Shown here in pieces: positions 15,001-44,428 of a stretch of DNA of 58,780 nucleotides. Each line of letters starts with the position of its first letter. Position 1 is the first letter of the stretch. Both the position numbers and the translations under genes were made by a program. This DNA is from a virus. The DNA lies in the IMG/VR virus record IMGVR_UViG_3300045988_043483; one strand, given 5' to 3'. The notes beneath the pieces were generated by a model, which was not told the origin of the DNA, searched no databases, and saw nothing but the letters and a program-made list of their open reading frames with translations.

Positions 15001-15514
15001 CACCAGTAGATGCCAGTCCTGCCAGTGCATTTGTCATGCGGATAATGTTCTCACTGACATTCGGAGCGGTTGAAAGAGTTGTAAATAACTGCTTCAAATT
15101 CTTTGCCAGTAAAGGAATGTTCGTGATTGCTCTGCCGGATGCAACGCCTCCGAGTCTTGAAATCGAAGATGCTATGCTCGCAATATCCCCTACTCCATCT
15201 ACTTTTGTTCCTGCCATGTCAGCAGAAAAAGTCTTCAGTGCAGATGAAATTCTGCTTAATCCGCTTGTATCTATTTTCCCCATTCTGTTAATGGAATTTG
15301 TCAATGTGGAGATATTCTTAATACCGCTCGTATTCATGGAACTGGCGGCATTTGCGATACTCTGTATGCTATTAGAAATGCTTGTCAGTTTGGATGTATC
15401 AATAGACAAGCTTCTCTGAAAATTCGTAAGACTTGATGCAAGTTTATTCAGCGCATTAGTTGCTTTGTCCGCATCCGCACTGATTTTTATTTGAAGATTA
15501 TCAATATCTGCCAT
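12059..15514 (-). CDS. Tape measure protein
   Basis: 1151 aa, helical and Ala/Gly-rich with a hydrophobic central segment, downstream of the G/GT chaperones. Confidence 0.85.
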   Translation of the reverse strand: MADIDNLQIKISADADKATNALNKLASSLTNFQRSLSIDTSKLTSISNSIQSIANAASSMNTSGIKNISTLTNSINRMGKIDTSGLSRISSALKTFSADMAGTKVDGVGDIASIASSISRLGGVASGRAITNIPLLAKNLKQLFTTLSTAPNVSENIIRMTNALAGLASTGAASGRAANSLGRNLNTYTASAKRATKSTFSLAAAFGRFYATYFLVIRGIKSLWKSIEGTTDYIEAFNYYTVAFNKVGKEWGKDFEKFGYDNAEDYAQSFGNRVNELLGKMSGLKVDVDGGLISESGMKNLGLNLQEITQYASQLASITNSLGQTGEVTTAISKSMTMLAGDISSLFNVDFSTVATNLQSGLIGQSRALYKYGIDITNATLQTYAYKYGIEKAVSEMSQAEKQQLRLLAILDQSKVSWGDLANTINSPSNMIRQFTNNVKEAGMVLGQLFIPVLQKVLPVINGVVIAIKRLLVSVANLLGIKIDFSSFGQGVSGYNEDLEDTADALDKVGTSAKNAQSGIRAFDKLKVISTPKSSGSGSGAGGTGIDLTKEIMDATAEYEKVWQEAFDKMQNTALGWADKIEKLLEPVKKLFKDLFNGDFFEAGQDLSGIVTGIFNWMSDAIASVDWYQIGQNIGQFLAGIDWTAVFTSAGNFIKTAIDAAIDLWKGSFDAAPIETTILTAIGLLKFTGLGDILWKAIKDSIVLSMGGKAGAGIGETILGSLLGTGAATGAGGAAAAGATGLFGGISAGAVAATAAITAVVAGLALVYATNEDVRNSFKESISAIADNLTPAMEFLTTTVIPDLQNAWTGLVDVLTPIGEFLKTAFTSIWQDMLNPALKYVGEEVLPKLQSAFENLWNGVLVPFGTFLGNILKPAIQIVTDILTVLWKNVVVPLAQALGSVLGAAFDAIVDTMNFLVEQVKPVIEVFNFLWDNVLSLIVTHLWEDLKPAFETVFNAIGNIIKNLGTKLKGLINFVSGVFTGNWRKAWDGIKDIFKGTFNNLVSIAEGCVNLIIDGINAFIDGFGLISGISEAIGISFKPVQIPKISIPRFDTGGYVPSRYTMIMAGENGVPEIAGTVGGKTAVAGGVEITGIKDAINSTAQQEIALLKQNNQLLQGILEKEFGITTDQIGIAARQYGQEQFNQKHKNVYVF

Positions 15515-15603: not shown

Positions 15604-16482
15604 TTACTTTTTGAGATATGCCCTTGTAACCGCACCGACTTTTCCATCTACAGTGATTCCAACACTCTTTTGGAATGCTTTTACTGCATCAGAAGTGGTT
15701 TTTCCAAAATATCCGTCAATGTTCGTCTTACCTTTCGCATTTACAGACGGCATAAAGCCTTTCCTTACAAGTTCGTACTGCGCCCACTTGACATCGTTTC
15801 CCTTCATCATTGCCAGACGCTTGTAATAAAGAAGTCTTTCCGGCTCTGTATAAGGGTTGCTATGGCTTGTAGAATCCTCATATACGGCATTTAACTCCTT
15901 GTACCATACATTCATGTCTACATTGCCTACAATACCGCCTACACGCCCTTTAGAAGTATACTGCCAGCCTACCATGTTCGGTACTTGCGGTTGATACTTC
16001 ACATCACACTTGCCGTTATTCTTGCCGTACCGTGCAATCCACATAGGATAACTCACACCGCCATAAGGCTTAATGTATGTCTTGTAAAAACTTTCCCCAG
16101 TGTATACACCGAATGGCAATCCTGCATCGGTGATTACCTTTCCGTAAGCATTGATAATAGAAATAATATTTTTGCCAAGACCTTTCATAACGGCATCTTC
16201 AACATCAAGATATACTGTCACTTTTCTGCCATTAAGAATAGTAAGCACTCTTCTTGCATCAGATCGTGATTTTGCAACCGTTGTAATATATCCGTATTCA
16301 TATACTCCGTGCACATGGACATTGTGCTCTTTACAACCTTTCCAGTTCTCTTCAAACTTCTTGTCCGGGTTCAAATCCTTACGGATGACTTTCAAAATAG
16401 CAAAATCAATACCGTTCTGTTTTACCGCCCACCAGTTAATCGTCCCCTGGTATGAGGACACATCAATTCCTGTTAAACTCAT
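15604..16482 (-). CDS. Endolysin: GH25 muramidase plus C-terminal peptidoglycan-binding domain
   Basis: GIDVSSYQGTINWWAVKQNGIDFAILKV is GH25-type. The C-terminus DGYFGKTTSDAVKAFQKSVGITVDGKVGAVT is PG_binding_1-like. Confidence 0.85.
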   Translation of the reverse strand: MSLTGIDVSSYQGTINWWAVKQNGIDFAILKVIRKDLNPDKKFEENWKGCKEHNVHVHGVYEYGYITTVAKSRSDARRVLTILNGRKVTVYLDVEDAVMKGLGKNIISIINAYGKVITDAGLPFGVYTGESFYKTYIKPYGGVSYPMWIARYGKNNGKCDVKYQPQVPNMVGWQYTSKGRVGGIVGNVDMNVWYKELNAVYEDSTSHSNPYTEPERLLYYKRLAMMKGNDVKWAQYELVRKGFMPSVNAKGKTNIDGYFGKTTSDAVKAFQKSVGITVDGKVGAVTRAYLKK

Positions 16483-16940
16483 GTTTGTTTCTCCTTTTTG
16501 GGATGTGATAATTCAAAATTAGCCTGCATTGCCATAAGTCCTGCAAGGAACGCTTTCCTTTGCTTCTGAATTTCTTTTTCATTATTAGCAATGTCAGCAC
16601 GTTCTATAATAGGCTTGTCAATATACTTCGATTGTGCTTTTCGACCGTTTAGGCAATGGTCTACGGCAACAGATGTTGCTGCTAGTCCATATTCTCCCCA
16701 CCACATCCACATTTCTCTGTCTCTCTGCTTCATTTCTAGCTTGTACGCTTCTGCATAAGGCTCTAAATCCGCAGGGCAGGAAGAATCTATATCTTTTACT
16801 GTAAATCCGTATCCTTTTGTGCATAAAAGCCACATAGGACGTACTTCTTTACAGTATATTTCCCATGTTAGTTCTCTGACTTCTCCGGTGCTTTCTTGGA
16901 GTTCTTCTCCTGCTCCTGTTTCAGGAGCTTCGCTAAAAAA
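16479..16940 (-). CDS. Tail assembly chaperone T-part, expressed as a G-T fusion by -1 frameshift
   Basis: The ORF (track 16479..16835) stays open upstream of its first ATG in the -1 frame relative to 16868..17275, back to the slippery heptamer at 16934-16940. Confidence 0.6.
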   Translation of the reverse strand, partial: FFSEAPETGAGEELQESTGEVRELTWEIYCKEVRPMWLLCTKGYGFTVKDIDSSCPADLEPYAEAYKLEMKQRDREMWMWWGEYGLAATSVAVDHCLNGRKAQSKYIDKPIIERADIANNEKEIQKQRKAFLAGLMAMQANFELSHPKKEKQT

Positions 16941-17275
16941 CCGTTTTCAAGCAGTTCTCCTTGCACATCAGCAAATAATTTCTGAATGTCAGATTCGTCA
17001 GAATCGAAATAATCATCAAGCATGGAATAAACCTCGCTTAACTTTGCTTCTTTCTGCTCTTTGTTGTAAGGGTCGAAACCGTATTCATCAGAGTGGTATT
17101 TCTGTAAACCTACAAGAATCAGTTCCGGCAGTAACATGAGAATGTTATTCACGGATTCAATGCCGTCTTCCTGCTTTTCAAGGTTTGCCAGTTTCTTAAT
17201 AATGTTGTTTTTTACGGTTGCTTCGTAACCAAATTTAATGTTCAGTTCCTTTTCTCCAAATTTTACTTTCAGCAT
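16868..17275 (-). CDS. Tail assembly chaperone (gpG-like)
   Basis: 135 aa with an acidic C-terminus, located between the major tail and TMP genes. Confidence 0.7.
   Translation of the reverse strand: MLKVKFGEKELNIKFGYEATVKNNIIKKLANLEKQEDGIESVNNILMLLPELILVGLQKYHSDEYGFDPYNKEQKEAKLSEVYSMLDDYFDSDESDIQKLFADVQGELLENGFLAKLLKQEQEKNSKKAPEKSEN
16934..16940 (-). promoter_or_regulatory. Candidate -1 programmed frameshift slippery site T TTT TTA
   Basis: Minus strand GGT TTT TTA GCG in the G frame. After the -1 shift the reading is FFSEAPETGAGEELQESTGEVRELTWEIYCKEVRPMWLL... with no stop. Confidence 0.55.
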
Positions 17276-17938: not shown

Positions 17939-18346
17939 TTACAATGTATCATCAGCACCTACTGTTCTTCTGAACCGTGCAGTGCTTCTGTATGTGTCCT
18001 GCGAAGTATTATTGAACTCTGGCATGGAAGTTATTTGAAATCGCAGACGTTTGAAAAGTCCGGCAACCGTAGACATGATAGTTTCGGCTTCTTCTTGACT
18101 TTTGTTGGTTATCACATCCACCTGGTACGATGCTGTGATTCCATTAACCGAACGTGCTTCAAGGTCTTGTCCAGTCTCTGTAAATGGCATAGCATGAAAG
18201 TACACGGTAGGGAATGTAGGGTCTGACAAATCCTTACTTTTGTCCGTCACATAAGCTTTCGGATGGCTCTGCCGTATCTTCATTTTTAAGTACGATGCAA
18301 TCTTGACTTTGAAATCTGATACCCATTGATATTCATTATTTTCCAT
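17939..18346 (-). CDS. Neck/tail-completion protein (hypothetical)
   Basis: Call rests on synteny between the gp10-like and major tail genes. Confidence 0.45.
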   Translation of the reverse strand: MENNEYQWVSDFKVKIASYLKMKIRQSHPKAYVTDKSKDLSDPTFPTVYFHAMPFTETGQDLEARSVNGITASYQVDVITNKSQEEAETIMSTVAGLFKRLRFQITSMPEFNNTSQDTYRSTARFRRTVGADDTL

Positions 18347-18962
18347 TTGATGACCTCCTTAATTCTCGAAGATCTCCTTGAAACAGAATCACATTAGGAT
18401 CATTATACCCTCTGTAAATTCTAGCCATAATGGATTTTGGGTTTATCCCTAGCAGTTCTCCCCACTCTGTTGCGCATCTTGTTTCTCCATTTTTTGTAAT
18501 CAAAACATTACTTGTCTTGTTTCTTGCTTGTTCTTTCATGGTTATAAAGGTACAGTTTTCAGGGCAATAATTTTTATGGACATCTATTCTTTCAATAGAT
18601 AGTTTTGGATTCCATCCATTTTCCAAACACCAGTCAGCAAAAGAATGAAAATCATTCTTCCATTTTTCGCATATGCAAATACCTTTTTCTCCGTATGAAT
18701 AATATCTTTCAGATTTAGGGTCATAGCATCTTTTTCGCATATTGCTCCAAACTCCGTATAGCTTTTCATAATCTTTTGAAGACATTCCATATGAATTTTT
18801 ATTTAAGCATCCGCAGGATTTTGCTTTTTTAAGTTGATCGGTTCTTACATATTTTGTTTTCCCACAATCGCACTTTACTTTTACATATTTCCTGTTTTTT
18901 TCGTATTTTTCTTCTCCAATGATTACTACTTTTCCAAAACGCTGACCGATATAATAGTTCAT
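18336..18962 (-). CDS. Homing-endonuclease-like protein (HNH_3/AP2-like signature)
   Basis: YGVWSNMRKRCYDPKSERYYSYGEKGICICEKW...LSIERIDVHKNYCPENCTFITMKEQARNK. A free-standing insertion within the neck/tail genes. Confidence 0.5.
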   Translation of the reverse strand: MNYYIGQRFGKVVIIGEEKYEKNRKYVKVKCDCGKTKYVRTDQLKKAKSCGCLNKNSYGMSSKDYEKLYGVWSNMRKRCYDPKSERYYSYGEKGICICEKWKNDFHSFADWCLENGWNPKLSIERIDVHKNYCPENCTFITMKEQARNKTSNVLITKNGETRCATEWGELLGINPKSIMARIYRGYNDPNVILFQGDLRELRRSSNGK

Positions 18963-29010: not shown

Positions 29011-29027
29011 CCTCATATCCTCCGTAA

Positions 29028-29100
29028 CCCATGCAGACGGAATCGAACCGCCGACACACATCCTATGCGGATGCCGCTCTTCCACTGAAGCTATGCATGG
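29028..29100 (-). tRNA. tRNA-like gene with CAU anticodon (Met/Ile2-type) and an atypical anticodon loop
   Basis: Perfect 7-bp acceptor CCATGCA/TGCATGG and T-arm GGCGG-TTCGATT-CCGTC. The anticodon loop is CGCATAG, which has G at position 33 and a possible C32:G38 pair. Confidence 0.5.
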
Positions 29101-29261
29101 AAATCGCACCGTAAAACCTTTTATGGCTTGCGCAAGCCATAACCAAATGTGCACCGCCTACTTGTCACTGACTATCCACAATCTCACAGTCTTGTCTGTT
29201 CTCTACTTCATAGGCTTGGTTTTTCGCTAAACATATGTGGCTTACGTTTTAGCTAGGGAAT

Positions 29262-29368
29262 AGTTGCCGTGGGAGTTGAACCCACCCGACGCAAACAAGG
29301 TACGACTACTTTTGAATCTGCAAATTCTACTCGCAGAAGTGTTTTTCGTTGACCGATAATGAGCAACT
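29262..29368 (-). ncRNA. 107-nt tRNA-like element (canonical T-arm and acceptor pairing, non-canonical body)
   Basis: T-arm GTGGG-TTCAACT-CCCAC, and acceptor AGTTGCT/GGCAACT, but 66 nt lie between the acceptor 5' strand and the T-arm. One possible fold has GCAGA/TTTGC closing a 21-nt loop that starts TTCAAAA. Confidence 0.3.
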
Positions 29369-29437
29369 ACTATCCATACATCTCCCATCGACCTGAACTA
29401 TTGCAGTAGTGCCAGACTAAGTGGAGACAAGGATAAA

Positions 29438-29505
29438 CACGCCCGGAAAGCATCGAACTTTCGCTAGAGGTTTTGGAGACCTCTTTCTGACCAACAGACA
29501 GACGT
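29438..29505 (-). tRNA. tRNA-Trp(CCA)-like, compact (68 nt including the discriminator)
   Basis: Anticodon arm GAGGT-CTCCAAA-ACCTC, T-arm GAAAG-TTCGATG-CTTTC, acceptor ACGTCTG/CGGGCGT with two G.U pairs, and a reduced D-arm (CTG-TTGGT-CAG). Confidence 0.45.
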
Positions 29506-29657
29506 ATATAAAGTTTTCACGATTTTTTGAAACTTGAAACGGTCAAACTTTTTCATTGCTTTCCAAAACAAGAGGATTTGTCACTATCTCAACAAAGCTA
29601 CTTCCTAGGATTTTCACTTCTCAATAATGACTACTGGTCGAATCCTTCATCGACGCA

Positions 29658-29739
29658 CGCCGTACACAGGATTTGAACCTGCAAGCCTTTTACAGCCAAC
29701 GGTTTTCAAGACCGCTCCCTCACCACCCGGACATACGGC
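29658..29739 (-). tRNA. tRNA-Ser(UGA)
   Basis: Anticodon arm GCGGT-CTTGAAA-ACCGT, long variable arm, T-arm GCAGG-TTCAAAT-CCTGT, acceptor GCCGTAT/GTACGGC. Confidence 0.75.
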
Positions 29740-29862
29740 AGATATGACAGTGTAATGGAACTGCCATATCTGAAATTGCTTTTGCCATTACTTTGTACAA
29801 TTTCATGCGGACTTTCTACCGCTTACGGCAAACCTTTTCCTAGGTTTATTGCCGTAAGTTAG

Positions 29863-29947
29863 CGCAGTGTGTAGGACTCGAACCTACAAGGCTAATAAAC
29901 GCCCGGCGGCTTAGCAAGCCGTTCCAATACCATTATGGGAACACTGC
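29863..29947 (-). tRNA. tRNA-Ser(GCU)
   Basis: Perfect acceptor GCAGTGT/ACACTGC, anticodon loop TTGCTAA, long variable arm, T-arm GTAGG-TTCGAGT-CCTAC. Confidence 0.8.
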
Positions 29948-30108
29948 ATAGCCGGAGGGCTTTTTACTTGGTTATCCTCCCGCCCAAGGATCTTTTAGTC
30001 AGCCGCAAGCGGCTCTATCAAGTTCCCATGAGATAAACATTAACCGGTGTATTTATCCCCTATGCTTCTGTAATAAGCATACTCGGAGTGTACTTGCAAC
30101 AACACCTA

Positions 30109-30182
30109 ATGGGATGATGGGACTTGAACCCACAGCCTATGCCTTAGAAGGACACTGCTCTTTCCATTTGCGCTACATCCCA
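30109..30182 (-). tRNA. tRNA-Arg(UCU)
   Basis: Acceptor TGGGATG/CATCCCA, anticodon arm GTGTC-CTTCTAA-GGCAT, T-arm GTGGG-TTCAAGT-CCCAT. Confidence 0.8.
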
Positions 30183-30183
30183 A

Positions 30184-30254
30184 TGATCGGTACGAGATTC
30201 GAACTCGCGTTACCACCGTGAAAGGGTGGTGTCTTACCACTTGACTAACCGATC
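30184..30254 (-). tRNA. tRNA-Glu(UUC)
   Basis: Acceptor GATCGGT/ACCGATC, anticodon arm CCACC-CTTTCAC-GGTGG, T-arm GCGAG-TTCGAAT-CTCGT. Confidence 0.85.
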
Positions 30255-30620
30255 ATGTGCGTTTCCATAAGCTGTATGCCTACATTTAAGGCGCTGACAC
30301 AGCGCAACACTTATGGCTATTTTTATTTTCGCAGGACATCCGCCAGTTACCTGCTAGTTGGGAGCAACCCAACCGTCTACGCCAATTTTATGTCCGCAAT
30401 GGCTGTGCGGGATTTTAATGTCTTTACTGACAACCCACGGATTAAAACCTACAACGGTATTCCGCAAAAACCGGGCTATCATAAACCGGTTAAACCCTCA
30501 CGAGCCTTGCGACGGCTCTTAACAGCATTCCGCTATGAGGGGAAAGGAGTGTCTCCAATGGAAAAGTATGGAAGACAATTCGCAGATGGCAAAGACCGAA
30601 AGAAGAAAACATCTGCGAAA

Positions 30621-30692
30621 CAGGACTACCAGGATTCGGACCTGGGAATGCAGCAGTCAAAGTGCTGTGCCTTACCGCTTGGCGATAGTCCT
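30621..30692 (-). tRNA. tRNA-Gln(UUG)
   Basis: Acceptor AGGACTA/TAGTCCT. The D-arm and variable region are near-identical to E. coli tRNA-Gln as I recall it. Anticodon arm CAGCA-CTTTGAC-TGCTG. The T-loop is TCCGAAT, i.e. C at position 55. Confidence 0.8.
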
Positions 30693-30997
30693 AAACTCCA
30701 GGAGAGAGACCATCTGCTCCCGGATTATTTTTTCGTGAAACACCCTATATTGCTTTATCTAAAAAAATTTTTACGCCTGTGTACAGTACTTTGAAAAACT
30801 TAGTGTTGTCGAACGCATTATTCCATTTTTCGTTTCCCACACACAGGCTGCATACACTCTTGATGCCTTGATTTCTCTGCCACATATCCAATGCCAACAC
30901 AACACCAGATATTCGGCAATAACAATGGCTTTATGAATTTAACCCATTCAACATTGTGATATGGGATAATTCGCATAATCTCCGGTAACCACATAAG

Positions 30998-38341: not shown

Positions 38342-39019
38342 ATGACGGAACTGGTAAACGTTGAGGGAACAGAACTGGCTGTCAGAGAATGGAATGGTCA
38401 GAGAGTTGTCACTTTTAGAGATATTGACAACGCACACGGTGTTAAGCCTGGTTCGGCAAAACGAAATTTTATAAGGAACAAAAGACATTTTATTGAGAAT
38501 GAAGATTATTTTATCGCAACAAGGGATTCTCTTAAAAGTGTCAATTTGACACATTTGAATGTTGATATACCGACAAGAGGTATAACACTTATTACTGAAA
38601 TGTGTTATTTGATGTTGGCAAAATCATTTACAGATGATAAATCATGGAATGTTCAACGTACACTTGTAAATGCTTATTTTATGTTAAAAAATCAACAGCC
38701 AACACCTACTTCCACCACAGCAATCGAGGAAAAACCGACATTAGAGTTTGAAACAGACTGGTTCTGCATCAACCGTGGCAAAATCAACTACATCTGCCGT
38801 TGCTACGATATTACATCAAAGGAATATATGCACCACCTACTTGAAGTTTTGGGAAGAACGTATAATTTTGATGAAGCAAAGAGAATTTACTGCGCAACGA
38901 CAGGAAACTGGAAATGCAGAAATTCCGAAGTAATCACATACTTCCAACAGCTTTCAGAACTTGCATCTAAAATTCTTAAGAAAGACTTAGAGGACTGTGC
39001 AAAAGAAGAGACCCCATAA
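38342..39019 (+). CDS. ORF6N/KilA-N-type antirepressor-like DNA-binding protein
   Basis: ELAVREWNGQRVVTFRDIDNAHGVKPGSAKRNFIRNKRHFIENEDYFI matches the ORF6N pattern. Confidence 0.6.
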   Translation: MTELVNVEGTELAVREWNGQRVVTFRDIDNAHGVKPGSAKRNFIRNKRHFIENEDYFIATRDSLKSVNLTHLNVDIPTRGITLITEMCYLMLAKSFTDDKSWNVQRTLVNAYFMLKNQQPTPTSTTAIEEKPTLEFETDWFCINRGKINYICRCYDITSKEYMHHLLEVLGRTYNFDEAKRIYCATTGNWKCRNSEVITYFQQLSELASKILKKDLEDCAKEETP

Positions 39020-39032
39020 CAGGGGTCTTTTC
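39008..39032. terminator. Hairpin GACCCC-ataaca-GGGGTC with a T-run, between convergent genes
   Basis: Read directly. Contains the stop of 38342..39019. Confidence 0.6.
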
Positions 39033-39352
39033 TATGCCATTATTTCCATGTATCCGCTTATCAATTCATCAGCCAACGCAAACACTTCTCTTCCGTAGGT
39101 AGCCAAAAAGTCGGCAACAATCTCTTCTGTCTGAATGTCCATAGTCAAATTGTAGGACAGGCAGAACGCATGACACAGTTCATGGCACAGCACACGATCA
39201 TAGAAATTGCCATGAATCATATTTGATATGTAAATATCTCTTGTGTTCCGGTCTGTCATGCCAAACGTATATGTACCGTCAGAACGCATCAGCATAGGGC
39301 TGTGACTGCCTACGAGCCTTAAATTCCAGTCTATTCCATTTATCGTGAACAA
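39032..39352 (-). CDS. Small HExxH zinc-metallopeptidase-like protein
   Basis: VLCHELCHAF motif. TTG 39352 lies 7 nt after GGAGG. Confidence 0.5.
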   Translation of the reverse strand: MFTINGIDWNLRLVGSHSPMLMRSDGTYTFGMTDRNTRDIYISNMIHGNFYDRVLCHELCHAFCLSYNLTMDIQTEEIVADFLATYGREVFALADELISGYMEIMA

Positions 39353-39365
39353 CTTACCACCTCCA

Positions 39366-39392
39366 ACATAAAAGGGGCTAAATAAGCCCCTT
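39366..39392 (-). terminator. Rho-independent terminator closing the accessory cluster
   Basis: AAGGGGCT-n5-AGCCCCTT followed by TTAT on the minus strand. Confidence 0.6.
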
Positions 39393-39399
39393 AAGTGTT

Positions 39400-40032
39400 T
39401 TAACCGATTTTTGTAACCAGTGCAGACAGCTTGTTCCGCAGTACCGTCTTTTCTTCCGGTGTTGCATCGTTGATGATCTCCGTCATGTCGTTTGCAAGTT
39501 CGGTCATGTAGGTGTTCAGGTCACGGACTTTTGCTTCTTTGTCCTGCTGTGTATTTGCCTTATGCAGTTCCTTATTTTCCATGTAGGTTCTGCGGCTCAT
39601 TCCACTTCTTCCCTCTCTTGCATCACGCATACCGGATGAAGAAGTTTCAGTGTAGTACATACGCCCCATGTCTCTGTCCATGTCACGGTGATACATTTCC
39701 GGGGTCATGTGATAATAGGGTGGTTCTTCATAACCTCTGCGGTAGGTTCCACGACCTTTAGGTGCAAATCTGCCGTCAGCATAGCGGTAATGGTCATAAA
39801 AACGTTTACCACCGTCACCGTAACGATCAAACATTTCCATGTTTTCGTCCGAATCATATTCCTGCATGGTTTTTGTCAGTTCCCGATAGTACATAGCTTC
39901 CGATAAGTCTTTCATCATGTCGATGACCTTCCCCATTTCGCAAGTATCTACTTTGTCAATTCCTTTGTCAAACTGCGTTTTAGCGCATTCAGAAAGTTTT
40001 TCAATCATTTCATGCATTCTTTTAACATCCAT
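39400..40032 (-). CDS. Low-complexity R/Y/M/D-rich protein (210 aa)
   Basis: Helical ends with a central segment RYGDGGKRFYDHYRYADGRFAPKGRGTYRRGYEEPPYYHMTPEMYHRDMDRDMGRMYY. Confidence 0.6.
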   Translation of the reverse strand: MDVKRMHEMIEKLSECAKTQFDKGIDKVDTCEMGKVIDMMKDLSEAMYYRELTKTMQEYDSDENMEMFDRYGDGGKRFYDHYRYADGRFAPKGRGTYRRGYEEPPYYHMTPEMYHRDMDRDMGRMYYTETSSSGMRDAREGRSGMSRRTYMENKELHKANTQQDKEAKVRDLNTYMTELANDMTEIINDATPEEKTVLRNKLSALVTKIG

Positions 40033-40045
40033 GATTTTTCACCTC

Positions 40046-40468
40046 CTACGCTTCACGAACGGCAATCAAATTGCTGTTCTGCACTTCAATAGCTTGCGTA
40101 GAAGTGTTCTGAACGGCTACCGTACTGCAGCATCCACGAGGAACATCAATGTAAGCCTGCGCAGAAACATTGAAGAAATTCTCTACTGCTGCCGGAGTTA
40201 CAATCATTCTTGTGGACTGCAAAGGTTCTCCGTCTACTGCCAGTGCAAGGGAGATTTCTTCAACAGTTCCACCAGTGGGAATCTGAATGTTGCCGGAATA
40301 ACTTACAAGGAATCTCGCCCGGCACTGATTAGTGATACCTCTTAACTTTACAATTCCGGATCCCTCTCTGTGAGTGATACAACCACTTCCATTTACGGCA
40401 GTTTCGGTAAAAGCAACGTCTGCTCCTGCTGCCACAGTCTGTAATGCTACTGCTGTATATTCAGCCAT
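40046..40468 (-). CDS. Beta-rich jelly-roll-like protein (possibly TNF/C1q/BclA-CTD-like)
   Basis: Start at ATG 40468 (AGAGAGG upstream). MAEYTAVALQTVAAGADVAFTETAVNGSGCITHREGSGIVKLRGITNQCRARFLVSYSGNIQIPTGG...VPRGCCSTVAVQNTSTQAIEVQNSNLIAV. The fold assignment is from memory only. Confidence 0.55.
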   Translation of the reverse strand: MAEYTAVALQTVAAGADVAFTETAVNGSGCITHREGSGIVKLRGITNQCRARFLVSYSGNIQIPTGGTVEEISLALAVDGEPLQSTRMIVTPAAVENFFNVSAQAYIDVPRGCCSTVAVQNTSTQAIEVQNSNLIAVREA

Positions 40469-40588
40469 AATAAATACCTCTCTTTCAAAATCAAAGGGGC
40501 AAACCATATAGTCTGCCCCATGTTGTCAGTAATTCTGCATAGCAGACATAATCGAGTTAACTCAATTAAGATACTCAATTATTCAGTT

Positions 40589-41368
40589 TTAGCAATTACA
40601 GCCGGTATTGCAACTGCAGCCATAAGCGTAAGCGTTAGGATTAGAAACAATATAAGCTGGAATAGCTGTAGGATTTACAGAGTTGACAATCTGCTGTGTC
40701 TGTGCTGTCATTGCAGTAGTCAGAAGTGCATTCTGTCTATCCTGTGAAGCAGAAAGTTCAAGTTTCTGCACCTTATCTCTCAAATCCGCATTTTCTTTTG
40801 CACATAAGTAATCAAGAATTGCTCTAGTGCCGGCATTCTGATTATCAATGATATCCCTTGTGTTGTTATTCATGGTGTTCTGCAATGCGCAAGTATTCGT
40901 TGCCATATTGTAGTTTACACCCTGGATAGCTTCACGGGTATCGCAGCAACACTGTGCTAACTGTGCCTGTAAAGCGTTAGCATTCTGCATTCCTGCTACG
41001 GTGTCGGCATTGATAGCCTGTTGGATGCCATAGCCAGTCTGTAAAATGTTGGTATTAACGCCATTAAATCCGGTAAGCATACCGTTGTTTACAGCGTAGA
41101 ATCCGTCACACAGACCGTTGTTGATTCCGTCCAGTTTACCGATGATAGACTGGGTGTCGAACCCTCTTTGCAATGCAGAATCGGTGTAGTAACTGGAATT
41201 AGAGCCATTACCGCCCCAACCATTACCGCCCCAACCTCCAAAAGCGAAGAAAAGGACGAAAATAATAATCCACCATGCACCATCGTCACCCCATGCACCG
41301 TTGTTTCCATATCCGCTGTTGGCAGGCATAACAGGCATGGTAAAGGGAGTATTGTTACTCTCAAACAT
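40589..41368 (-). CDS. Membrane-anchored G/N/W- and Cys-rich protein
   Basis: Start at ATG 41368 (GGAGG 8 nt upstream). Features: TM WWIIIFVLFFAF, GGWGGNGWGGNG, an internal CCC, and a C-terminal CSCNTGCNC. Confidence 0.6.
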   Translation of the reverse strand: MFESNNTPFTMPVMPANSGYGNNGAWGDDGAWWIIIFVLFFAFGGWGGNGWGGNGSNSSYYTDSALQRGFDTQSIIGKLDGINNGLCDGFYAVNNGMLTGFNGVNTNILQTGYGIQQAINADTVAGMQNANALQAQLAQCCCDTREAIQGVNYNMATNTCALQNTMNNNTRDIIDNQNAGTRAILDYLCAKENADLRDKVQKLELSASQDRQNALLTTAMTAQTQQIVNSVNPTAIPAYIVSNPNAYAYGCSCNTGCNC

Positions 41369-41422
41369 AATTTTTACCTCCATATAAGATTTTTTATACT
41401 TAATCTTGCAAGAATTTAGTAT

Positions 41423-41662
41423 CTACTTCATAGGAAATTGACGCTTGAATTTTTCAAATTCAGAATCAAAATCTACGCCACGTTCCTTAGCAATATTTCT
41501 GCCAAAATTTTCAACACCTGATATGTCACCTTTTTGCGCCATTCCCATTACATTTCTAATCATGGGGTTTTGCATCATCTGACTATTTCCCATAATCCCT
41601 TGAATTATTTGTTGTGGATTTCCCATCCCTTTGAGCATCTGCATAGGATTCATCATTTTCAT
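41423..41662 (-). CDS. M/Q/N-rich small protein (79 aa)
   Basis: MKMMNPMQMLKGMGNPQQIIQGIMGNSQMMQNPMIRNVMGM... Confidence 0.55.
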   Translation of the reverse strand: MKMMNPMQMLKGMGNPQQIIQGIMGNSQMMQNPMIRNVMGMAQKGDISGVENFGRNIAKERGVDFDSEFEKFKRQFPMK

Positions 41663-42135
41663 TCTGCATCATCCTTTCTTTGCGATTGCGAAGTTTTTCT
41701 TTGCGATTGCGAAGATTTCAACTGCTCAATCTTTTGTTCCAGTTCATCGAAACGCTTCATAAATACCGCTGTGGCTTCGTCTGATAGGTCAAATTTTGCT
41801 TTTTCTGTTTCTGACGGTAAATTGTTAGGGTCTGCATCTAAAAAAGGCTTGTAGAGCCTTGTATAGATTTTTCCATCTGCTCCCCAAGATTTAGCATAGA
41901 TCTCCGACAAATCCTGCTTGGGAAAGAATGCTGTGTTGCCATCCATAGGAACATCATTCGGTGCTATGCACTCTTGCGCCGGTACAATACGACCGTACAT
42001 CTGTACTGTGTTTTGCTGTGGCTGTTGCATAAATTGCTGTGGTTGGAATTGCTCCTGTTGTGGCATAAACTGTCCGTACATAGGTGTTCTATACTGCGGA
42101 TTGAAATAGTTCGGATTCATAATCGGCTGCGGCAT
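41659..42135 (-). CDS. Protein with a Q/P/M-rich N-terminus (158 aa)
   Basis: MPQPIMNPNYFNPQYRTPMYGQFMPQQEQFQPQQFMQQPQQ, followed by a globular part and the duplicated C-terminal SQSQRK. Confidence 0.55.
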   Translation of the reverse strand: MPQPIMNPNYFNPQYRTPMYGQFMPQQEQFQPQQFMQQPQQNTVQMYGRIVPAQECIAPNDVPMDGNTAFFPKQDLSEIYAKSWGADGKIYTRLYKPFLDADPNNLPSETEKAKFDLSDEATAVFMKRFDELEQKIEQLKSSQSQRKTSQSQRKDDAE

Positions 42136-42188
42136 GGCTATTCTCCCTTTCTTCCATTGATTCTATCTGTTTCGCAATTTCAACTTCA

Positions 42189-42377
42189 TCAAGTGTCTGA
42201 TATGTCGGCTTGTTCATAAGTCCCAACGGACTGAAATTCATAAGCATTACCTGTTTCTCCTAAAACTTCCTCGATCACATGAACCATGATTGATTGATAC
42301 TTAATCGGCACTTCCCTTGTACGTTCTTTGCTGAATATATGTTCCAGTGTTTCATCTGAAAATTTGAATTTTCCCAT
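42189..42377 (-). CDS. Hypothetical protein (62 aa), first gene of the accessory cluster
   Basis: AAGGAGGG RBS. Confidence 0.5.
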   Translation of the reverse strand: MGKFKFSDETLEHIFSKERTREVPIKYQSIMVHVIEEVLGETGNAYEFQSVGTYEQADISDT

Positions 42378-42503
42378 AAGGTCATCCCTCCTTATGCTTA
42401 AATTTTGGCATAAAAAAAGACGGTCTACCCGTCATGTATCCGTCACATTTCATTCACTATAAAATTATTGGAATCTTTGCAAAAAACTCCTTTCGTTTTA
42501 GGC

Positions 42504-42688
42504 TTGACTACTATTTTGACTACTATTCGACTACCCGTTGCCCGGGAATGCCCATTTTATCAGCTTTTTCGAGTGGAAGCAAGGGGGCTCGAACCCCACT
42601 CTATTCCTCTTACTTTCCGCATATTTACTGGCTTTCTAGGTGTTTTTTGTTGATTACTTTTGACTACTTTCGCAAAAATAGTAGTCAA
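42504..42688. mobile_element. Candidate attP region: tRNA 3'-end fragment flanked by arm-type repeats
   Basis: Minus strand 42600->42574 reads TGGGG-TTCGAGC-CCCCT-TGCTTCC-A, a T-arm plus 3' acceptor with no 5' half. TTGACTACTATT occurs twice at 42504-42527, with a partial copy at 42528-35, TTGACTACTTT at 42660-70 and an inverted copy at 42677-88. Confidence 0.55.
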
Positions 42689-42689
42689 A

Positions 42690-43910
42690 TCACCTTGCCT
42701 GTAAATCTGGTATACTACTCAAAATAGACGATTTCTTTTCAATGGTTTTCCTGTTCCTATGATAGTGTATTTCTGATGTCATAATATCTGTATGCCCCAT
42801 CTGATCCATAACAAGTCTCTTATCCACATTGTTATCCATAAGAATAGTTCCATATGTCTTTCTTACTTTGTGCGGTGGCTTTGGATAAATTTTCAATTTC
42901 CTGCAAAGCCTTTTCTGCCTTTGTCTAACCGCCTGTGCGGTGATCCTAATATCATTTTTTGTAAAAATGTAATCTCCAAACGGATTCATGTGTTTTATTT
43001 TATCGCAAATCCATACATAATCACTTGGTATAATTGCTGTTCTGATTCCTGCCTTGGTTTTAGGATACTCTTTTACTTCAACAACATTGTTTCCGTTTTC
43101 ATCTTTATACTTCGTCTCCGTTCTGCGAACGTTAAAAGTATTATCAGAAAAATCGGAATGCCTTAATGTTACAACTTCTCCGATACGTACACCAGTTAAA
43201 AACATAAGCAATATCGCAACATTAGAAGTATCAAGGTGGCTGACAAGATACTTAATCATTACATCAGTTTCATATTCGTCGAATACTTCTTCATAGTCTT
43301 CTTTTATTACTTTTTTAAAATCACTATCAGATACGTCAAGATTATCAAACAGTTCTACGATATTAAAATCAATAAGTTTGCGTTTTTTCGCTCTTTTAAG
43401 AAATGTTCTTGTAATTCCTTTTAGACCGGAAAATGATTTAGGTGTCAACTCTTTATCGGCAATTTCTTCCTCTAAAAAATCCCCCCATTCATCTTCTGAT
43501 ATTGATTTTATTCTTCGCTTTCCCAACTCTCCATAGTGTCTGAGAAAATATCTCTCGTCTCTGTCGTATGTTGCTTTACATATCTTTTTAAGAGACAATC
43601 TCCGGTCTTCACATTCGTAAAACACTTCTGTAACTGTTGGATTTTGCTCTTTTTGGTAGTAAAACTCAATAACTTCTTCTTTGAGATCTTCCTCGCTTTT
43701 CTTTTTTACAAGTCTCCTTCCTTTTTCTTCATCTGGCAAATAAGTTCTCCAGTATCCGTCTTTGCCTTTGTTGATTGCGTATTGGTGTTTCTTCAGATAC
43801 TCCTCTTTCTTTTTCATTTCAATGCTTTTTTGCAAAGATTCCGTGTCAATCATACCATTGCTAACGGCATATTGCAATATTTCCATATCAGAAAGTTCCA
43901 AATCTATCAC
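42690..43910 (-). CDS. int: Tyrosine recombinase / integrase
   Basis: TGVRIGE (Arg I), PHKVRKTY (His-x-x-Arg) and GHTDIMTSEIHYHRN (His/Tyr) in the C-terminal domain. Confidence 0.85.
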   Translation of the reverse strand: MIDLELSDMEILQYAVSNGMIDTESLQKSIEMKKKEEYLKKHQYAINKGKDGYWRTYLPDEEKGRRLVKKKSEEDLKEEVIEFYYQKEQNPTVTEVFYECEDRRLSLKKICKATYDRDERYFLRHYGELGKRRIKSISEDEWGDFLEEEIADKELTPKSFSGLKGITRTFLKRAKKRKLIDFNIVELFDNLDVSDSDFKKVIKEDYEEVFDEYETDVMIKYLVSHLDTSNVAILLMFLTGVRIGEVVTLRHSDFSDNTFNVRRTETKYKDENGNNVVEVKEYPKTKAGIRTAIIPSDYVWICDKIKHMNPFGDYIFTKNDIRITAQAVRQRQKRLCRKLKIYPKPPHKVRKTYGTILMDNNVDKRLVMDQMGHTDIMTSEIHYHRNRKTIEKKSSILSSIPDLQAR

Positions 43911-44109
43911 CTTCTAACCGCTTAAGTTTATTTTTTATAGACCTCACTCTTCTTTCTACAGTAGTTACAGAAATGGAATGTCTAAAGGATATTTCTTTTT
44001 GAGAAATTCCTTTAGACAAATCCCAAAACACTTTTTCTTCCTCTTCCGTGAAATTGGCGTTCCGGAAGATTTCTTCAAGTTCTGGCTTAGTCAGTTTTGA
44101 TAACTTCAT
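43888..44109 (-). CDS. Small sigma-70 region-4/LuxR-type HTH protein
   Basis: Start at ATG 44109 (AAGGAG 8 nt upstream). GISQKEISFRHSISVTTVERRVRSIKNKL. Confidence 0.55.
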   Translation of the reverse strand: MKLSKLTKPELEEIFRNANFTEEEEKVFWDLSKGISQKEISFRHSISVTTVERRVRSIKNKLKRLEGDRFGTF

Positions 44110-44137
44110 AAGCCATTCTCCTTCGCTAAATTTCAGT

Positions 44138-44428
44138 TTAATAATCATATTCTACAGCTCTGTTCGGCTTAAATTGTCCTTTCATCATCAACTTTGCTTC
44201 AAATAACTTATCAACAAGAATATCAATGCTCTTAATGTCTGTAAAAACAAGCAATGTGTCATCATCTTCTTGTACAAACTTTTCAGCACTAATTGCTTCT
44301 CCAACTTTATGAGTGCCTTTGTTTTGTAAAACAACACAACACCTTTGCTTATCTTCTTGGCATAATGCAGTTAATAAAATATCTCCTGTTCCAAATCTTG
44401 CTATAGCTTTTCCTTCTATCATTTTCAA
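44138..44428 (-). CDS. Hypothetical protein (96 aa)
   Basis: Operon-oriented ORF. Confidence 0.5.
   Translation of the reverse strand: MKMIEGKAIARFGTGDILLTALCQEDKQRCCVVLQNKGTHKVGEAISAEKFVQEDDDTLLVFTDIKSIDILVDKLFEAKLMMKGQFKPNRAVEYDY

Follow-up and report, generated by a model that had tools for sequence, protein, structure and literature searches.

A common phage gene cassette with a TNF/C1q-type jelly-roll protein, carried by phages of gut and rumen Clostridia

What is the role of the six small, co-oriented genes that lie beside the integrase in the viral contig IMGVR_UViG_3300045988_043483 (58,780 nt; this whole stretch is called the window)? An initial annotation made from the DNA alone had described six minus-strand ORFs (39400-42377; g6 to g1 in order of coordinates) as a module that might convert the spore or cell surface of the lysogen. 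The ORFs are present at these coordinates and have the compositions then described. To judge from their conservation, they are real genes and not chance ORFs, because the families of g4 and g5 each exceed 7,000 members at 90% clustering and the gene order is kept in more than 100 loci. None of the six resembles a phage structural or replication protein, as had been claimed: profile searches gave no virion or replication family match, and searches of Pfam, NCBIfam, PADLOC, and PDB sequences returned nothing explanatory for any of them.

Upstream of g1 lies a tyrosine integrase (42690-43910, minus strand; Pfam PF00589, 1.9e-16; phrog_1) of 398 aa when started at the ATG at 43886, as in public gene calls. 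The 310-nt spacer between integrase and g1 looks like an attP on sequence inspection; the candidate site (42440-42689, minus strand) contains the inverted repeat TTTGACTACT/AGTAGTCAAA and a tRNA-3'-end-like segment, GGGGTTCGAGCCCCCTTGCTTCCA, flanked by three direct TAGTAGTCAA repeats. The window's exact integrase protein occurs on 22 contigs, with the cassette following in every case, and the proposed position at a prophage end, adjoining att, is borne out by prophages with an identical g5 (L024-L026) in which the cluster directly borders host genes.

The six ORFs represent an uncharacterised cassette that is very common among phages of Clostridia from the gut and rumen, and at least 588 IMG/VR contigs have it. 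Among the 109 fetched g5 loci on which our gene-content counts are based, g4 accompanies g5 in 105 (adjacent), g2 in 96, g6 in 93, and g3 in 90, and 59 have a regulator gene nearby. The conserved order is regulator, hairpin with extended -10-like element, small peptidase, g2, g3, g4, g5, g6, and terminator, the peptidase being either a Cys-His-Asp type (cysP) at the 5' end or, as in the window, an HExxH protein (g7) at the 3' end. Thus the six genes exist but are not the full set, since a small regulator (43888-44148) and g7 travel with them; in this lineage, integrase and attP are placed between the regulator and g1. The cassette directly follows holin/endolysin genes in 41 of the 109 loci, sits inside head-morphogenesis modules between portal/MuF and scaffold/major capsid genes in 13-17, and is found elsewhere after a recombinase or, in many temperate phages, beside int/att. 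One group (L098-L109) has a holin-like gene within the cassette.

The cis elements fit a moron-like layout, as the initial annotation had proposed; a moron specific to this lineage was rejected, the same gene set recurring across the 109 g5 loci. A terminator scan located a hairpin plus extended -10-like element at 42403-42433 (minus strand), consisting of the hairpin GACGGGTAGACCGTC, a run of seven T residues, and TGCCAAAAT, 24 nt before the g1 start. Relatives keep the position of this hairpin while the stems differ. The cassette's first gene has a hairpin upstream in 42/87 loci, compared with 10.8% for other genes (4.5-fold enrichment), and the composite of hairpin, T-run, and extended -10 is found in 13/84 compared with 13/1979 (Fisher p = 2e-12). 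The hairpin is predicted to insulate the cassette from transcription arriving from upstream, and the extended -10-like element is probably the cassette's own promoter. A second terminator-like hairpin (40496-40519, minus strand; 10-bp stem and T-rich tail) separates g4 from g5; its position is kept in L003, and in relatives inserted genes are frequent at this spacer. The terminator claimed downstream of g6 at 39366-39392 corresponds to a bidirectional terminator-like hairpin at 39372-39392, and in both L003 and L037 the final cassette gene is followed by an equivalent one. By inspection, the cassette genes have strong ribosome binding sites.

The accompanying regulator (43888-44148, minus strand; 86 aa as an ORF, 73 aa as called in public contigs) is a small sigma-70 region-4/GerE-type HTH protein, with Pfam matches to GerE (9.3e-5) and Sigma70_r4_2 (0.014) that are both below cut-off; the homologue in L065 matches Sigma70_r4 at 9e-7, and homologues in other phages lie directly 5' of the cassette or within it. 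The 106-aa g7 (39032-39352, minus strand; phrog_1233, 6.7e-14) is metallopeptidase-like, with an HELCH motif and sub-threshold Pfam matches to SprT-like (0.004) and Peptidase_M78 (0.01). It also resembles ImmA-type proteases. The peptidase-like cysP has an invariant Cys17/His97/Asp108 and no match to Pfam C39 or to PDB sequences; solitary homologues of it also occur in the early regions of Tsamsa-like Bacillus phages and of Geobacillus GBK2. The two forms are nearly exclusive (cysP in 75 of the 109 loci, g7 in 27, both in 2).

The acidic, 62-aa g1 (42189-42377, minus strand) is confined to cassettes of the window's type (flavor A); at least 1000 public contigs carry an identical g1, and one source names the host as Waltera sp. 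The 158-aa g2 (41659-42135, minus strand; phrog_21718, 7.4e-12) has a disordered Q/P/M-rich (also Q/P/Y-rich) N-terminus, a small beta-rich central domain, a coiled coil, and a basic S/Q/R/K tail, and is translationally coupled through an ATGA overlap to g3 (41423-41662, minus strand), a helical, Met/Gln/Asn-rich protein of 79 aa with 16% Met. The 210-aa g6 (39400-40032, minus strand) starts 13 nt past the g5 stop behind a strong ribosome binding site and has an R/Y/M/D-rich low-complexity center between helical N- and C-terminal parts. A second flavor, B, has a g2 counterpart matching the same phrog_21718 (3e-74) and a g6 matching phrog_28802; hhalign probabilities between flavors are 94% for g2 and 96% for the C-terminal 58 columns of g6, with controls below 1%. 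On this shared family and these profile alignments, we regard the two flavors as homologous.

The g4 ORF (40589-41383, minus strand; phrog_16490, 5e-56; 7,937 relatives at 90% clustering) probably starts at 41368, giving 259 aa, as indicated by the family alignment and an exact public gene call. All the motifs that had been noted in it are present (GGWGGNGWGGNG, an internal CCC, and a C-terminal CSCNTGCNC), and the CCC triplet is kept in 93% of the family, the C-terminal CxC in 96-97%, with a median of 11 cysteines. A conserved N-terminal peptide is followed by a Gly/Trp-flanked hydrophobic segment, three long helices, and the CxC tail; the AF2 model consists of helices only and is unreliable (pLDDT 40). 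Because K/R are nearly absent around the hydrophobic segment, the topology of this candidate membrane anchor, and even its insertion, is doubtful. Most g4 proteins, including that of the window, have an N-terminal motif of the MVMPVAPMYGG type, and 23 distinct N-termini carry LSxxD[IV]xx[VAL]xG[GN].

The cassette centers on g5 (40046-40468, minus strand), with the cysteine-rich, putatively membrane-anchored g4 as its partner; g5 is a stand-alone TNF/C1q-type jelly roll of 140 aa whose start, MAEYT, is the conserved N-terminus of the family. The initial annotation had suggested a TNF/C1q-like, BclA-like fold, and Foldseek on a confident AlphaFold/AF2 model (pLDDT 93.6) confirmed it: the best PDB match is F-BclA (9h38; E 8e-8, TM 0.75), followed by BxpB, ExsFA, and the BclA C-terminal domain, then TNF, EDA, and C1q, and also by TNF-like phage-fiber knobs (the cyanophage A-1(L) short tail fiber CBD and the phi812 spike); BFVD gave matches as well. 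Identity to BxpB and BclA is 8-16%. The family comprises 7,280 relatives at 90% clustering and 904 clusters at 50% identity, of which the 150 listed span 83-196 aa. Cys113 and Cys114 are kept in 100% and 99% of sequences, and g5 is the slowest-evolving cassette member, being the most conserved in 85% of 600 locus pairs.

The closest known system is the exosporium basal-layer adaptor of the Bacillus cereus group, BxpB/ExsFA (PDB 8d02, 7r1m, 9h3d). There, BxpB (167 aa) stands alone as a trimer, which touches cysteine-rich proteins of the basal layer and captures a short peptide from the N-terminus of BclA (PMC10470788). Like g5, BxpB/ExsFA are stand-alone, cytoplasmic proteins of about 140-167 aa with one TNF/C1q-type jelly roll and no signal peptide (Foldseek E 6e-6 to 1e-5, TM 0.75-0.78). 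However, identity is only 8-10% with no common sequence family; g5 is phage-borne and also found in non-sporulating hosts; its cysteines (C49, C113, C114) sit inside the fold rather than in a disordered N-terminus; and g2, g3, g4, and g6 lack exosporium counterparts. The C-terminal domains of BclA (exosporium nap) and F-BclA (F-ENA tip fibrillum; PDB 1wck, 9h38) are the best structural matches (TM up to 0.75) and share the TNF-like topology and size (about 135-140 residues), but form the ends of glycoproteins that have a collagen-like region and, at the N-terminus, an exosporium leader, and g5 has neither. Ena fibers (endospore appendages) and L-BclA dock covalently, by disulfides, through a CC motif (PMC12357932). 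Ena subunits and the L-BclA connector likewise pair a jelly roll that has conserved cysteines with a cysteine-rich CC partner, as may the CC of g5 and the CCC and CxC tail of g4; unlike them, the phage proteins show no sequence or Pfam relation (DUF3992/DUF4183 not matched), and the putative connector is a separate protein with a hydrophobic anchor.

We tentatively favor, with somewhat less than even confidence, the explanation that this self-contained operon builds a cysteine-linked multi-protein assembly around a BxpB-like g5 trimer. Specifically, i) g5 would be a trimeric adaptor, by analogy with BxpB/ExsFA in the Bacillus exosporium, with its invariant Cys-Cys tying it to the cysteine-rich g4; ii) g4 would supply a hydrophobic anchor and long helical stalk; iii) the low-complexity-rich g2, g3, and g6 would be scaffold or chaperone partners; iv) the small peptidase would mature one component; and v) g2-g3-g4 would be an exchangeable, specificity-bearing block, and g5 (and g6) the constant part. 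Comparison of L013 with L015 suggests that g2-g3-g4 are swapped as one block (31%, 36%, and 46% identity, compared with 94% for cysP, 99% for g5, and 89% for g6). Since no cassette product has a signal peptide, the proteins would be made in the cytoplasm. We infer the g4-g5 contact only from the adjacency of the two genes and the joint conservation of their cysteines. Strict anaerobes are not expected to form disulfides in their cytoplasm, and the cysteines may bind metal instead; very different g4 alleles accompany nearly identical g5 proteins, which fits poorly with a tight, specific interface; the phage-fiber knobs among the fold matches, together with the 8-16% identity, would count against a BxpB-like g5; and g7 and cysP could serve regulation or host take-over rather than maturation.

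Those same fiber knobs would suit a virion appendage or decoration, an optional head or tail add-on in which a g4 coiled-coil fiber is tipped by a g5 TNF-like trimer, like adenovirus/PRD1-type knobs or phi29 head fibers, with g2 and g3 as assembly chaperones and the peptidase as maturation enzyme. Insertion in head modules and at the late-operon end after lysis genes, carriage by both lytic and temperate phages, and strong ribosome binding sites with a fixed gene order suited to stoichiometric structure all agree with this. We nevertheless consider it unlikely: no other member is as conserved as g5, whereas a receptor-binding tip in an arms race should show the reverse; g5 proteins 84% identical to that of the window sit with capsid genes lacking BLAST similarity to the window's capsid core; the g4 allele is exchanged within one backbone (L013 and L015); a Gly/Trp-flanked hydrophobic segment and low-complexity partners are unusual in fibers; and in the window some 5 kb and two terminators separate the cassette, which has a promoter-like element of its own, from the structural genes.

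Decidedly unlikely is a membrane-anchored complex for superinfection exclusion, defense, or host take-over that, expressed from a prophage or at an early stage of infection, would stop the entry or development of competing phages or reprogram the cell. The cassette does resemble morons with a small HTH regulator, of the anti-CRISPR-aca type, in being self-contained, with a promoter-like element, terminators, and a small HTH gene, and in being inserted at module boundaries, including head modules and att sides. Its int/att-side position in many temperate phages, the variable g2-g3-g4 block expected of a specificity determinant under conflict, and the cysP homologues that neighbor kinase and Ocr-like genes in the early regions of Bacillus phages point the same way. 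But anti-CRISPR-aca loci encode one or two small variable inhibitors, and the cassette five conserved, non-enzymatic proteins in a shared order; the known Sie systems consist of one small protein, not of five to seven genes; no PADLOC family matched, and profile searches found no nuclease, NTPase, or other typical effector domain. A head-module location is unusual for such systems, although anti-CRISPR loci do occur inside head modules.

A lysis-associated or lysis-released factor is less probable still. Here g4 would be membrane-active, bacteriocin-like or holin-accessory, its leader cut by the small peptidase, and g5 a trimeric binding subunit, both freed at lysis; lacking signal peptides, they would therefore require lysis for release. 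The many cassettes directly after holin/endolysin genes, the holin-like gene within L098-L109, the 23 N-termini resembling double-glycine leaders, and the invariant cysP triad favor this, with the accessory proteins XepA/XhlA of the PBSX lytic cassette as an analogy. XepA/YomS are accessory beta-sandwich oligomers, of unknown role, within the lytic cassettes of Bacillus subtilis PBSX/SPbeta (PMC6834076), and XepA/YomS with XhlA likewise place a beta-sandwich and a membrane/coiled-coil protein beside holin and endolysin. They are, however, pentamers of another fold, absent among the 50 Foldseek matches listed for g5, and the cassette has five to seven genes and its own regulator and, as in the window, often lies away from lysis genes: the endolysin of this contig (GH25 + PG_binding_1, 15604-16482) lies a long way off. 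Most g4 lack the leader-like N-terminus, which is not linked to cysP; cysP is without a C39 or PDB sequence match; no ABC transporter was found; and g4 is far bigger than holins.

Most improbable is the reading of the initial annotation, in which BclA/BxpB-like, cysteine-rich, and Tyr/Arg-rich proteins decorate the exosporium, coat, or surface of the lysogen: the exosporium proteins are the closest g5 fold matches, absent signal peptides suit mother-cell assembly, the phage encodes a Spo0A_C-only protein (the reported ORF at 2563-2883 is indeed Spo0A_C-like; Pfam, 1.1e-7) and a GerE-type regulator, serine-recombinase relatives integrate within sigG, the cassette lies at a prophage end, and its cysteine-rich and R/Y-rich compositions recall ExsY/CotY and CotG-type proteins, but the cassette is also carried by phage Ceridwen of Butyrivibrio fibrisolvens, which lacks an integrase and was observed only in the lytic cycle, by a Selenomonas contig (L023), and in head-module and post-lysis sites, it lay in no non-phage sporulation locus among 117 loci, g5 lacks a collagen-like stalk or exosporium leader (all 150 listed representatives are 83-196 aa), and all eight listed contigs with the exact integrase were excised or replicating. 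Butyrivibrio and Selenomonas are not known to form spores.

Assembly at the cell surface or envelope as such may occur. With lytic as well as temperate carriers, and with non-sporulating hosts, the cassette is therefore not a spore-specific lysogenic-conversion module. In the explanation that we favor, a cysteine-linked assembly around g5, the window would hold one copy of a phage operon that is self-contained, mobile, and old, and that may benefit the phage itself, whether lytic or temperate, and also in hosts that do not sporulate.

The six co-oriented genes of the cassette (g1 to g6) are all present on the minus strand between 39400 and 42377, and every sequence feature quoted in the initial annotation is found in their ORFs: g1 (42189-42377, 62 aa), g2 (41659-42135, 158 aa), g3 (41423-41662, 79 aa), g4 (40589-41383), g5 (40046-40468, 140 aa), and g6 (39400-40032, 210 aa). 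Two starts were refined: family alignment and an exact public gene call place the start of g4 at 41368 (259 aa), and the MAEYT start of g5 is the conserved N-terminus of its family. The genes have strong ribosome binding sites, and g2 and g3 overlap. A tyrosine integrase (42690-43910; PF00589, 1.9e-16) lies upstream, separated from g1 by a 310-nt attP-like spacer in which an inverted repeat and three direct TAGTAGTCAA repeats surround a tRNA-3′-end-like segment; a bidirectional hairpin (39372-39392) lies downstream of g6. The proposed position at a prophage end is real, because host genes directly adjoin the cluster in prophages with identical g5 (loci L024-L026). A 17-nt perfect inverted repeat, TTTTTTGCAAAGATTCC, brackets the integrase gene and attP, with one copy (42471-42487, minus strand) over a promoter-like site 5′ of the cassette and the other (43826-43842, plus strand) in the 5′ part of the integrase coding sequence; possibly it was left behind when the integrase-attP module inserted between the regulator and g1. 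Two contigs with the exact integrase of the window (L112, 119,947 bp; L116, 115,722 bp) are about twice the length of the 58-kb genome; on both, integrase, attP, and cassette are contiguous, and this points to concatemers or circular genomes assembled from actively replicating phage, not to integrated prophages.

Searches of g1 to g6 against Pfam, NCBIfam, and PADLOC gave no informative match, for divergent homologs as for the window proteins; PDB sequence and profile searches with g2, g4, g5, g6, and cysP (a Cys-His-Asp peptidase-like protein of other cassettes) were empty; megablast of the region against GenBank phages returned nothing informative; and Rfam, run on the window and on 39000-43000, recovered phage tRNAs only. 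Three products belong to PHROGs annotated as unknown function (g2, phrog_21718; g4, phrog_16490; g5, phrog_20016); public copies are all labeled "hypothetical protein", one source placing g1 in Waltera, a genus of Lachnospiraceae; a plasmid collection yielded a single match, to a Vescimonas replicon of 861 kb; and for the gene set as such we found no describing paper, no Pfam, NCBIfam, or PADLOC family, and no PDB sequence relative. Only the fold of g5 and the moron-like organization are of known kinds.

The genes are nevertheless abundant and their order is fixed. Clustered at 90%, the families of g4 and g5 number at least 7,937 and 7,280 members; relatives of g5 are spread over at least 588 IMG/VR contigs, and some window proteins recur unchanged on at least 1000 public contigs. 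We annotated 109 g5-bearing loci from genomes, GenBank phages, metagenomes, and IMG/VR with family HMMs: g4 lies beside g5 in 105, and g2, g6, and g3 are found in 96, 93, and 90, always, where present, in the order g2-g3-g4-g5-g6. There are two flavors, the window type (g1-g2-g3-g4-g5-g6-g7, where g7 is a 106-aa HExxH protein at 39032-39352 on the minus strand) and a commoner type that begins with the 125-aa cysP. Both forms of g2 match phrog_21718, and profile-profile comparison between flavors gives probabilities of 94% (g2) and 96% (g6), mismatched controls staying below 1%; by these sequence comparisons the two flavors are homologous.

Within the cassette g5 is the constant and g2-g3-g4 the variable part. 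Over 600 random locus pairs, g5 is the most conserved member in 85%, with mean identities of 58% for g5, 46% for g4, and 36-38% for g2, g3, and g6. Loci L013 and L015 share cysP (94%), g5 (99%), and g6 (89%), yet their g2, g3, and g4 are only 31%, 36%, and 46% identical; g2-g3-g4 have been swapped as a block between nearly identical cassettes. Other genes also enter: between g4 and g5 there may be a C5 DNA methyltransferase (L013) or a 105-aa ORF (L006, L024), and a family represented in the window by a 208-aa protein (18336-18962, minus strand), without a Pfam match, is found inserted in the cassettes of other phages between g3 and g4, g4 and g5, or g5 and g6 (L005 8261-8884, L072 1334-1894, L031 6361-6942, L035 10556-11119, and L001 9560-10141). 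This family behaves like a mobile, homing-endonuclease-like gene.

An AlphaFold2 model of g5, made from an alignment of 58 sequences that are 62-95% identical to the query, is all-beta, of 11 strands (pLDDT 93.6, pTM 0.86), and has the compact 10-11-strand antiparallel beta-sandwich of TNF topology that defines the TNF/C1q-like jelly roll. Foldseek against the PDB returned 82 matches at E <= 1e-3 (TM 0.65-0.78 and identity 8-16% for the top ranks), the best being the F-BclA C-terminal domain of the F-ENA tip fibrillum (9h38; E 8e-8, TM up to 0.75), followed by BxpB (8d02), ExsFA (7r1m, 9h3d), the BclA C-terminal domain (1wck), and then EDA/TNF ligands and C1q heads; phage-fiber knob domains rank lower. 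This ranking bears out, at the level of fold, the resemblance to TNF/C1q-like BclA C-terminal domains that the initial annotation had proposed. BclA-type proteins, however, carry an exosporium leader and a collagen-like GXX stalk before the TNF-like domain, whereas g5 has no leader, no GXX repeats, and no Pfam match, and a beta-strand begins already at residue 2. The family comprises 904 clusters at 50% identity, of which the 150 listed are stand-alone proteins of 83-196 aa, and BFVD holds many stand-alone TNF-like proteins of 130-142 aa from metagenomic sipho-, myo-, and podoviruses; g5 defines a new stand-alone family of TNF/C1q-fold proteins from bacterial viruses. Its nearest architectural analog is BxpB/ExsFA, also stand-alone, a trimer which captures the BclA N-terminal peptide and touches cysteine-rich basal-layer proteins (PMC10470788). 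We have left aside an isopeptide model of BclA-BxpB attachment because the source paper is marked retracted. From the fold alone we infer that g5 would be a homotrimer.

The cysteines of g5 and g4 are conserved together. Cys113 and Cys114 of g5 are kept in 100% and 99% of sequences, and g4, with a median of 11 cysteines, keeps its CCC triplet in 93% and two C-terminal cysteines in 96-97%; in Ena fibers and L-BclA, CC motifs serve covalent docking (PMC12357932). For g4, AlphaFold2 run on an alignment of 21 sequences gave no usable model (pLDDT 40), and all that it showed was one short hydrophobic helix and three long ones. The hydrophobic 15-mer of g4 (mean Kyte-Doolittle 1.94) has almost no flanking Lys or Arg and is preceded by an acidic N-tail, and sequence inspection found no signal peptide in any of the six proteins. 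The N-terminus of g4 carries one of two conserved peptides, LSAADIAAVTG[GN] or MVMPVAPMYGG, the FTMPVMPANSG of the window being of the latter type. The former looks like a double-glycine leader and is found in 23 of about 93 distinct g4 N-termini, the window's g4 being without it; the reference double-glycine system has a leader LSxxELxxIxGG and a papain-like C39 peptidase, usually fused to an ABC exporter, and no ABC transporter is present in any cassette locus. The idea that the g4 N-terminal type is tied to g5, cysP, or the phage backbone was dropped, as L013 and L015 differ in g4 type but share 99% g5 and 94% cysP. Nor does g4 qualify as a holin or lysis-cassette protein: holins have about 70-150 aa, 1-4 transmembrane segments, a charged C-terminus, and a holin-family match, whereas g4 has 259-264 aa, one hydrophobic segment, and no holin match in Pfam or PHROG, and the endolysin of the window lies elsewhere.

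Each cassette tends to carry one small peptidase-like gene of either type, since cysP is found in 75 of the 109 loci, g7 in 27, and both in only two, where g7 is 6 kb off. In cysP, which has no Pfam or PDB sequence match, Cys17, His97, and Asp108 are invariant. The HELCH motif of g7 is accompanied by sub-threshold Pfam scores (SprT-like, 17.3 bits against a cut-off of 25.6; M78, 16.1 bits against 22) and by a match to phrog_1233, annotated as unknown function (6.7e-14); an ImmA-like regulatory role is possible. We considered and dropped the view that g7 is unrelated to the cassette: it and cysP almost never occur together, and in many loci it directly adjoins g6. Homologs of cysP also occur without the rest of the cassette, in Bacillus phage Izhevsk (9583-9978) and Geobacillus phage GBK2 (26471-26860); in Tsamsa-like Bacillus phages the solo gene, annotated "putative peptidase", is an early-region neighbor of genes for a Ser/Thr kinase and an Ocr-like protein, and GBK2 has it in the early region ahead of RecT/SSB genes. 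In 59 of the 109 loci a small sigma-70 region-4/GerE-type HTH gene either directly adjoins the cassette on its 5′ side or falls between cysP and g2; the lineage of the window has the recombinase, be it of tyrosine or serine type, together with attP between this gene (43888-44148) and g1.

In 42 of 87 loci a hairpin and T-run precede the first cassette gene by no more than 160 nt, as against 10.8% of other genes, their position being kept among relatives while the stems differ. Right after the T-run, 18-33 nt before the start codon, comes the extended -10-like sequence TGnCAWAAT; the window's upstream element reads GACGGGTAGACCGTC-T7-A-TGCCAAAAT. The composite of hairpin, T-run, and extended -10 occurs, in both flavors, in 13 of 84 distinct first-gene upstream regions versus 13 of 1979 others (Fisher p = 2e-12). 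Terminator-like hairpins follow the last cassette gene in the window, L003, and L037, and window-type cassettes have a further one between g4 and g5. Given the upstream element and the terminators, the cassette would appear to be insulated from its surroundings and to have a promoter of its own, which may depend on the regulator; together with the adjoining host DNA in L024-L026, these features give it the layout of a moron, a unit that is autonomous and sits between modules or at the end of a prophage. We rejected a lambda-Q-like arrangement, in which promoter, leader, and terminator precede the operon: no consensus sigma-70 promoter was found upstream of the hairpins, and sigma-70-like promoters lie 5′ of them in 11% of cases versus 10% in shuffles. 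Nor is TTTGCAAAGAT a shared late-promoter or operator motif, because its extra copies at about 28.5 kb fall within a coding repeat (FCKD).

The initial annotation had proposed that the cluster converts the spore or cell surface of the lysogen. Its structural intuition, that these are self-assembling, exosporium-like proteins, stands; surface conversion of the lysogen as a general function is contradicted by the distribution. All 117 loci examined are phage or prophage settings, and co-occurrence with non-phage sporulation loci was found in none of them. Spore coat and exosporium genes belong to endospore formers and to sporulation loci, whereas this cassette is found in Ceridwen (a cultured Butyrivibrio phage), on a Selenomonas contig, and in phage-only contexts. 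According to genome records the hosts are Lachnospiraceae (Clostridium sp. CAG:510, Lachnospira, Acetatifactor, Hungatella, Agathobacter), Acutalibacteraceae, and Selenomonas; the last assignment calls for caution because the contig is only 3.6 kb long. To our knowledge, Butyrivibrio fibrisolvens and Selenomonas are non-spore-forming. Ceridwen carries cysP-g2-g3-g4-g5-g6, has no integrase, and has been observed only in a lytic cycle (PMC7372960), which shows that the cassette is not confined to lysogeny.

Fixed order with a nearby regulator, near-exclusive peptidases, invariant cysteine clusters, and a g5 that evolves more slowly than all its neighbors point to a single multi-protein machine or structure, a chance collection of unrelated hypothetical genes being unlikely. 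We have shown a conserved, mobile, self-contained phage operon with a BxpB/BclA-fold core, co-conserved cysteine clusters, alternative peptidases, and a dedicated small regulator. The reading we tentatively prefer, while granting that it may well be wrong, is that the products are made in the cytoplasm and joined, through cysteines or metal, into one assembly of g5 trimer and g4 filament, which serves the phage and does not remodel spores; the g5 trimer would be the constant adaptor, g4 the anchored filament, and the operon would be of use to the phage generally.

Among the alternatives, a virion appendage is unlikely but the strongest. Seed-based annotation of neighboring genes places the cassette within the head module in 13-17 loci (portal, MuF-like, cassette, scaffold, major capsid); the capsid core of the window has no BLAST similarity to the capsids of other cassette phages, even at 84% g5 identity. 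Elsewhere a recombinase lies upstream (seven loci, plus the window and L112-L119), and on one 116-kb contig gyrase genes adjoin the cassette. A role in exclusion or take-over, somewhat less probable again, would suit an autonomous moron-like unit; g1 to g7 have no defense-model match in PADLOC-DB 2.0 at E <= 0.01, with one chance-level match for g6 (0.063). We doubt still more that the products are lysis-associated or lysis-released factors, the location best compatible with this being that of 41 loci in which a holin or endolysin gene lies just upstream (in nine an opposite-strand integrase follows); the window has a canonical endolysin of its own (GH25 muramidase plus PG_binding_1; 15604-16482, minus strand), and the cassette as a substitute for a missing lysis module was rejected on that account. 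Spore-surface conversion, which has the BclA-like fold in its favor and the host range and phage-only settings against it, is the least probable.

A bolder reading, and an improbable one, is a portable coat-building kit in tailed phages of Clostridia and Negativicutes, which would make a cysteine-cross-linked, exosporium-like layer independently of sporulation. In this kit the trimer would be BxpB-like and the anchored filament protein rich in cysteine; low-complexity proteins would supply the matrix, a peptidase would carry out maturation, and a dedicated regulator would complete the set. The layer might be assembled on the membrane of the infected cell, on spores where the host sporulates, or around virions after their release.

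Several other features of the window phage deserve mention. Its endolysin gene is not positioned after tail-fiber genes and lies between a tail assembly chaperone-like gene (16868-17275; Pfam below cut-off) and an 1151-aa ORF (12059-15514), with no Pfam match and only weak tblastn matches, taken to be the tape-measure gene; no holin was identified in this phage. Downstream of an antirepressor gene (Bro-N/KilAC, 4536-5261), the early region codes for a 157-aa protein (3565-4038, minus strand) that has an SLT lytic-transglycosylase domain and, at its N-terminus, a signal or anchor sequence. A 419-aa protein (7930-9189, minus strand) matches phrog_17196, annotated "kinase" (2.5e-30), and nothing in Pfam; by position and sequence it looks like a tail-fiber protein, and the label is probably misleading. 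Seven tRNA genes (Met, Trp, two Ser, Arg, Glu, and Gln; 29027-30693, minus strand) lie upstream of the packaging genes.

Two observations touch on sporulation. Relatives with a large serine recombinase in place of the tyrosine integrase are integrated within the forespore sigma-factor gene sigG in two independent samples (L004 7693-8110, L029 7692-7994; phage form L003 7900-8100); the site is directly 3′ of ftsZ-spoIIGA-sigE, the truncated ORF ends ...KFSTYAVPM/ACG-stop, and the crossover lies around CCATGGCATGTGG. Among the papers that a literature search listed, none describes sigG-interrupting prophages, and the intervening elements known to us are all in mother-cell genes. The window itself encodes, at 2563-2883 (minus strand), a 106-aa protein that has the C-terminal DNA-binding domain of Spo0A and nothing else (above the Pfam cut-off for Spo0A_C, at 1.1e-7); truncated phage Spo0A of this class has already been described in human-gut phages (PMC10294663).

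We wish to stress that a lineage which encodes a Spo0A effector domain, and whose relatives insert into sigG, bears on the interplay of gut phages with sporulation, and that the evidence cautions against taking the cassette itself for a sporulation module. The cassette is among the most widespread uncharacterized conserved gene sets in phages of human-gut and rumen Clostridia, and as cultured Ceridwen carries it, work on it could readily begin with that phage on Butyrivibrio fibrisolvens DSM 3071. Should the cassette be a coat-building kit, tailed phages would have their first described envelope- or coat-forming system, and exosporium or endospore-appendage proteins a possible evolutionary tie to phage genes.
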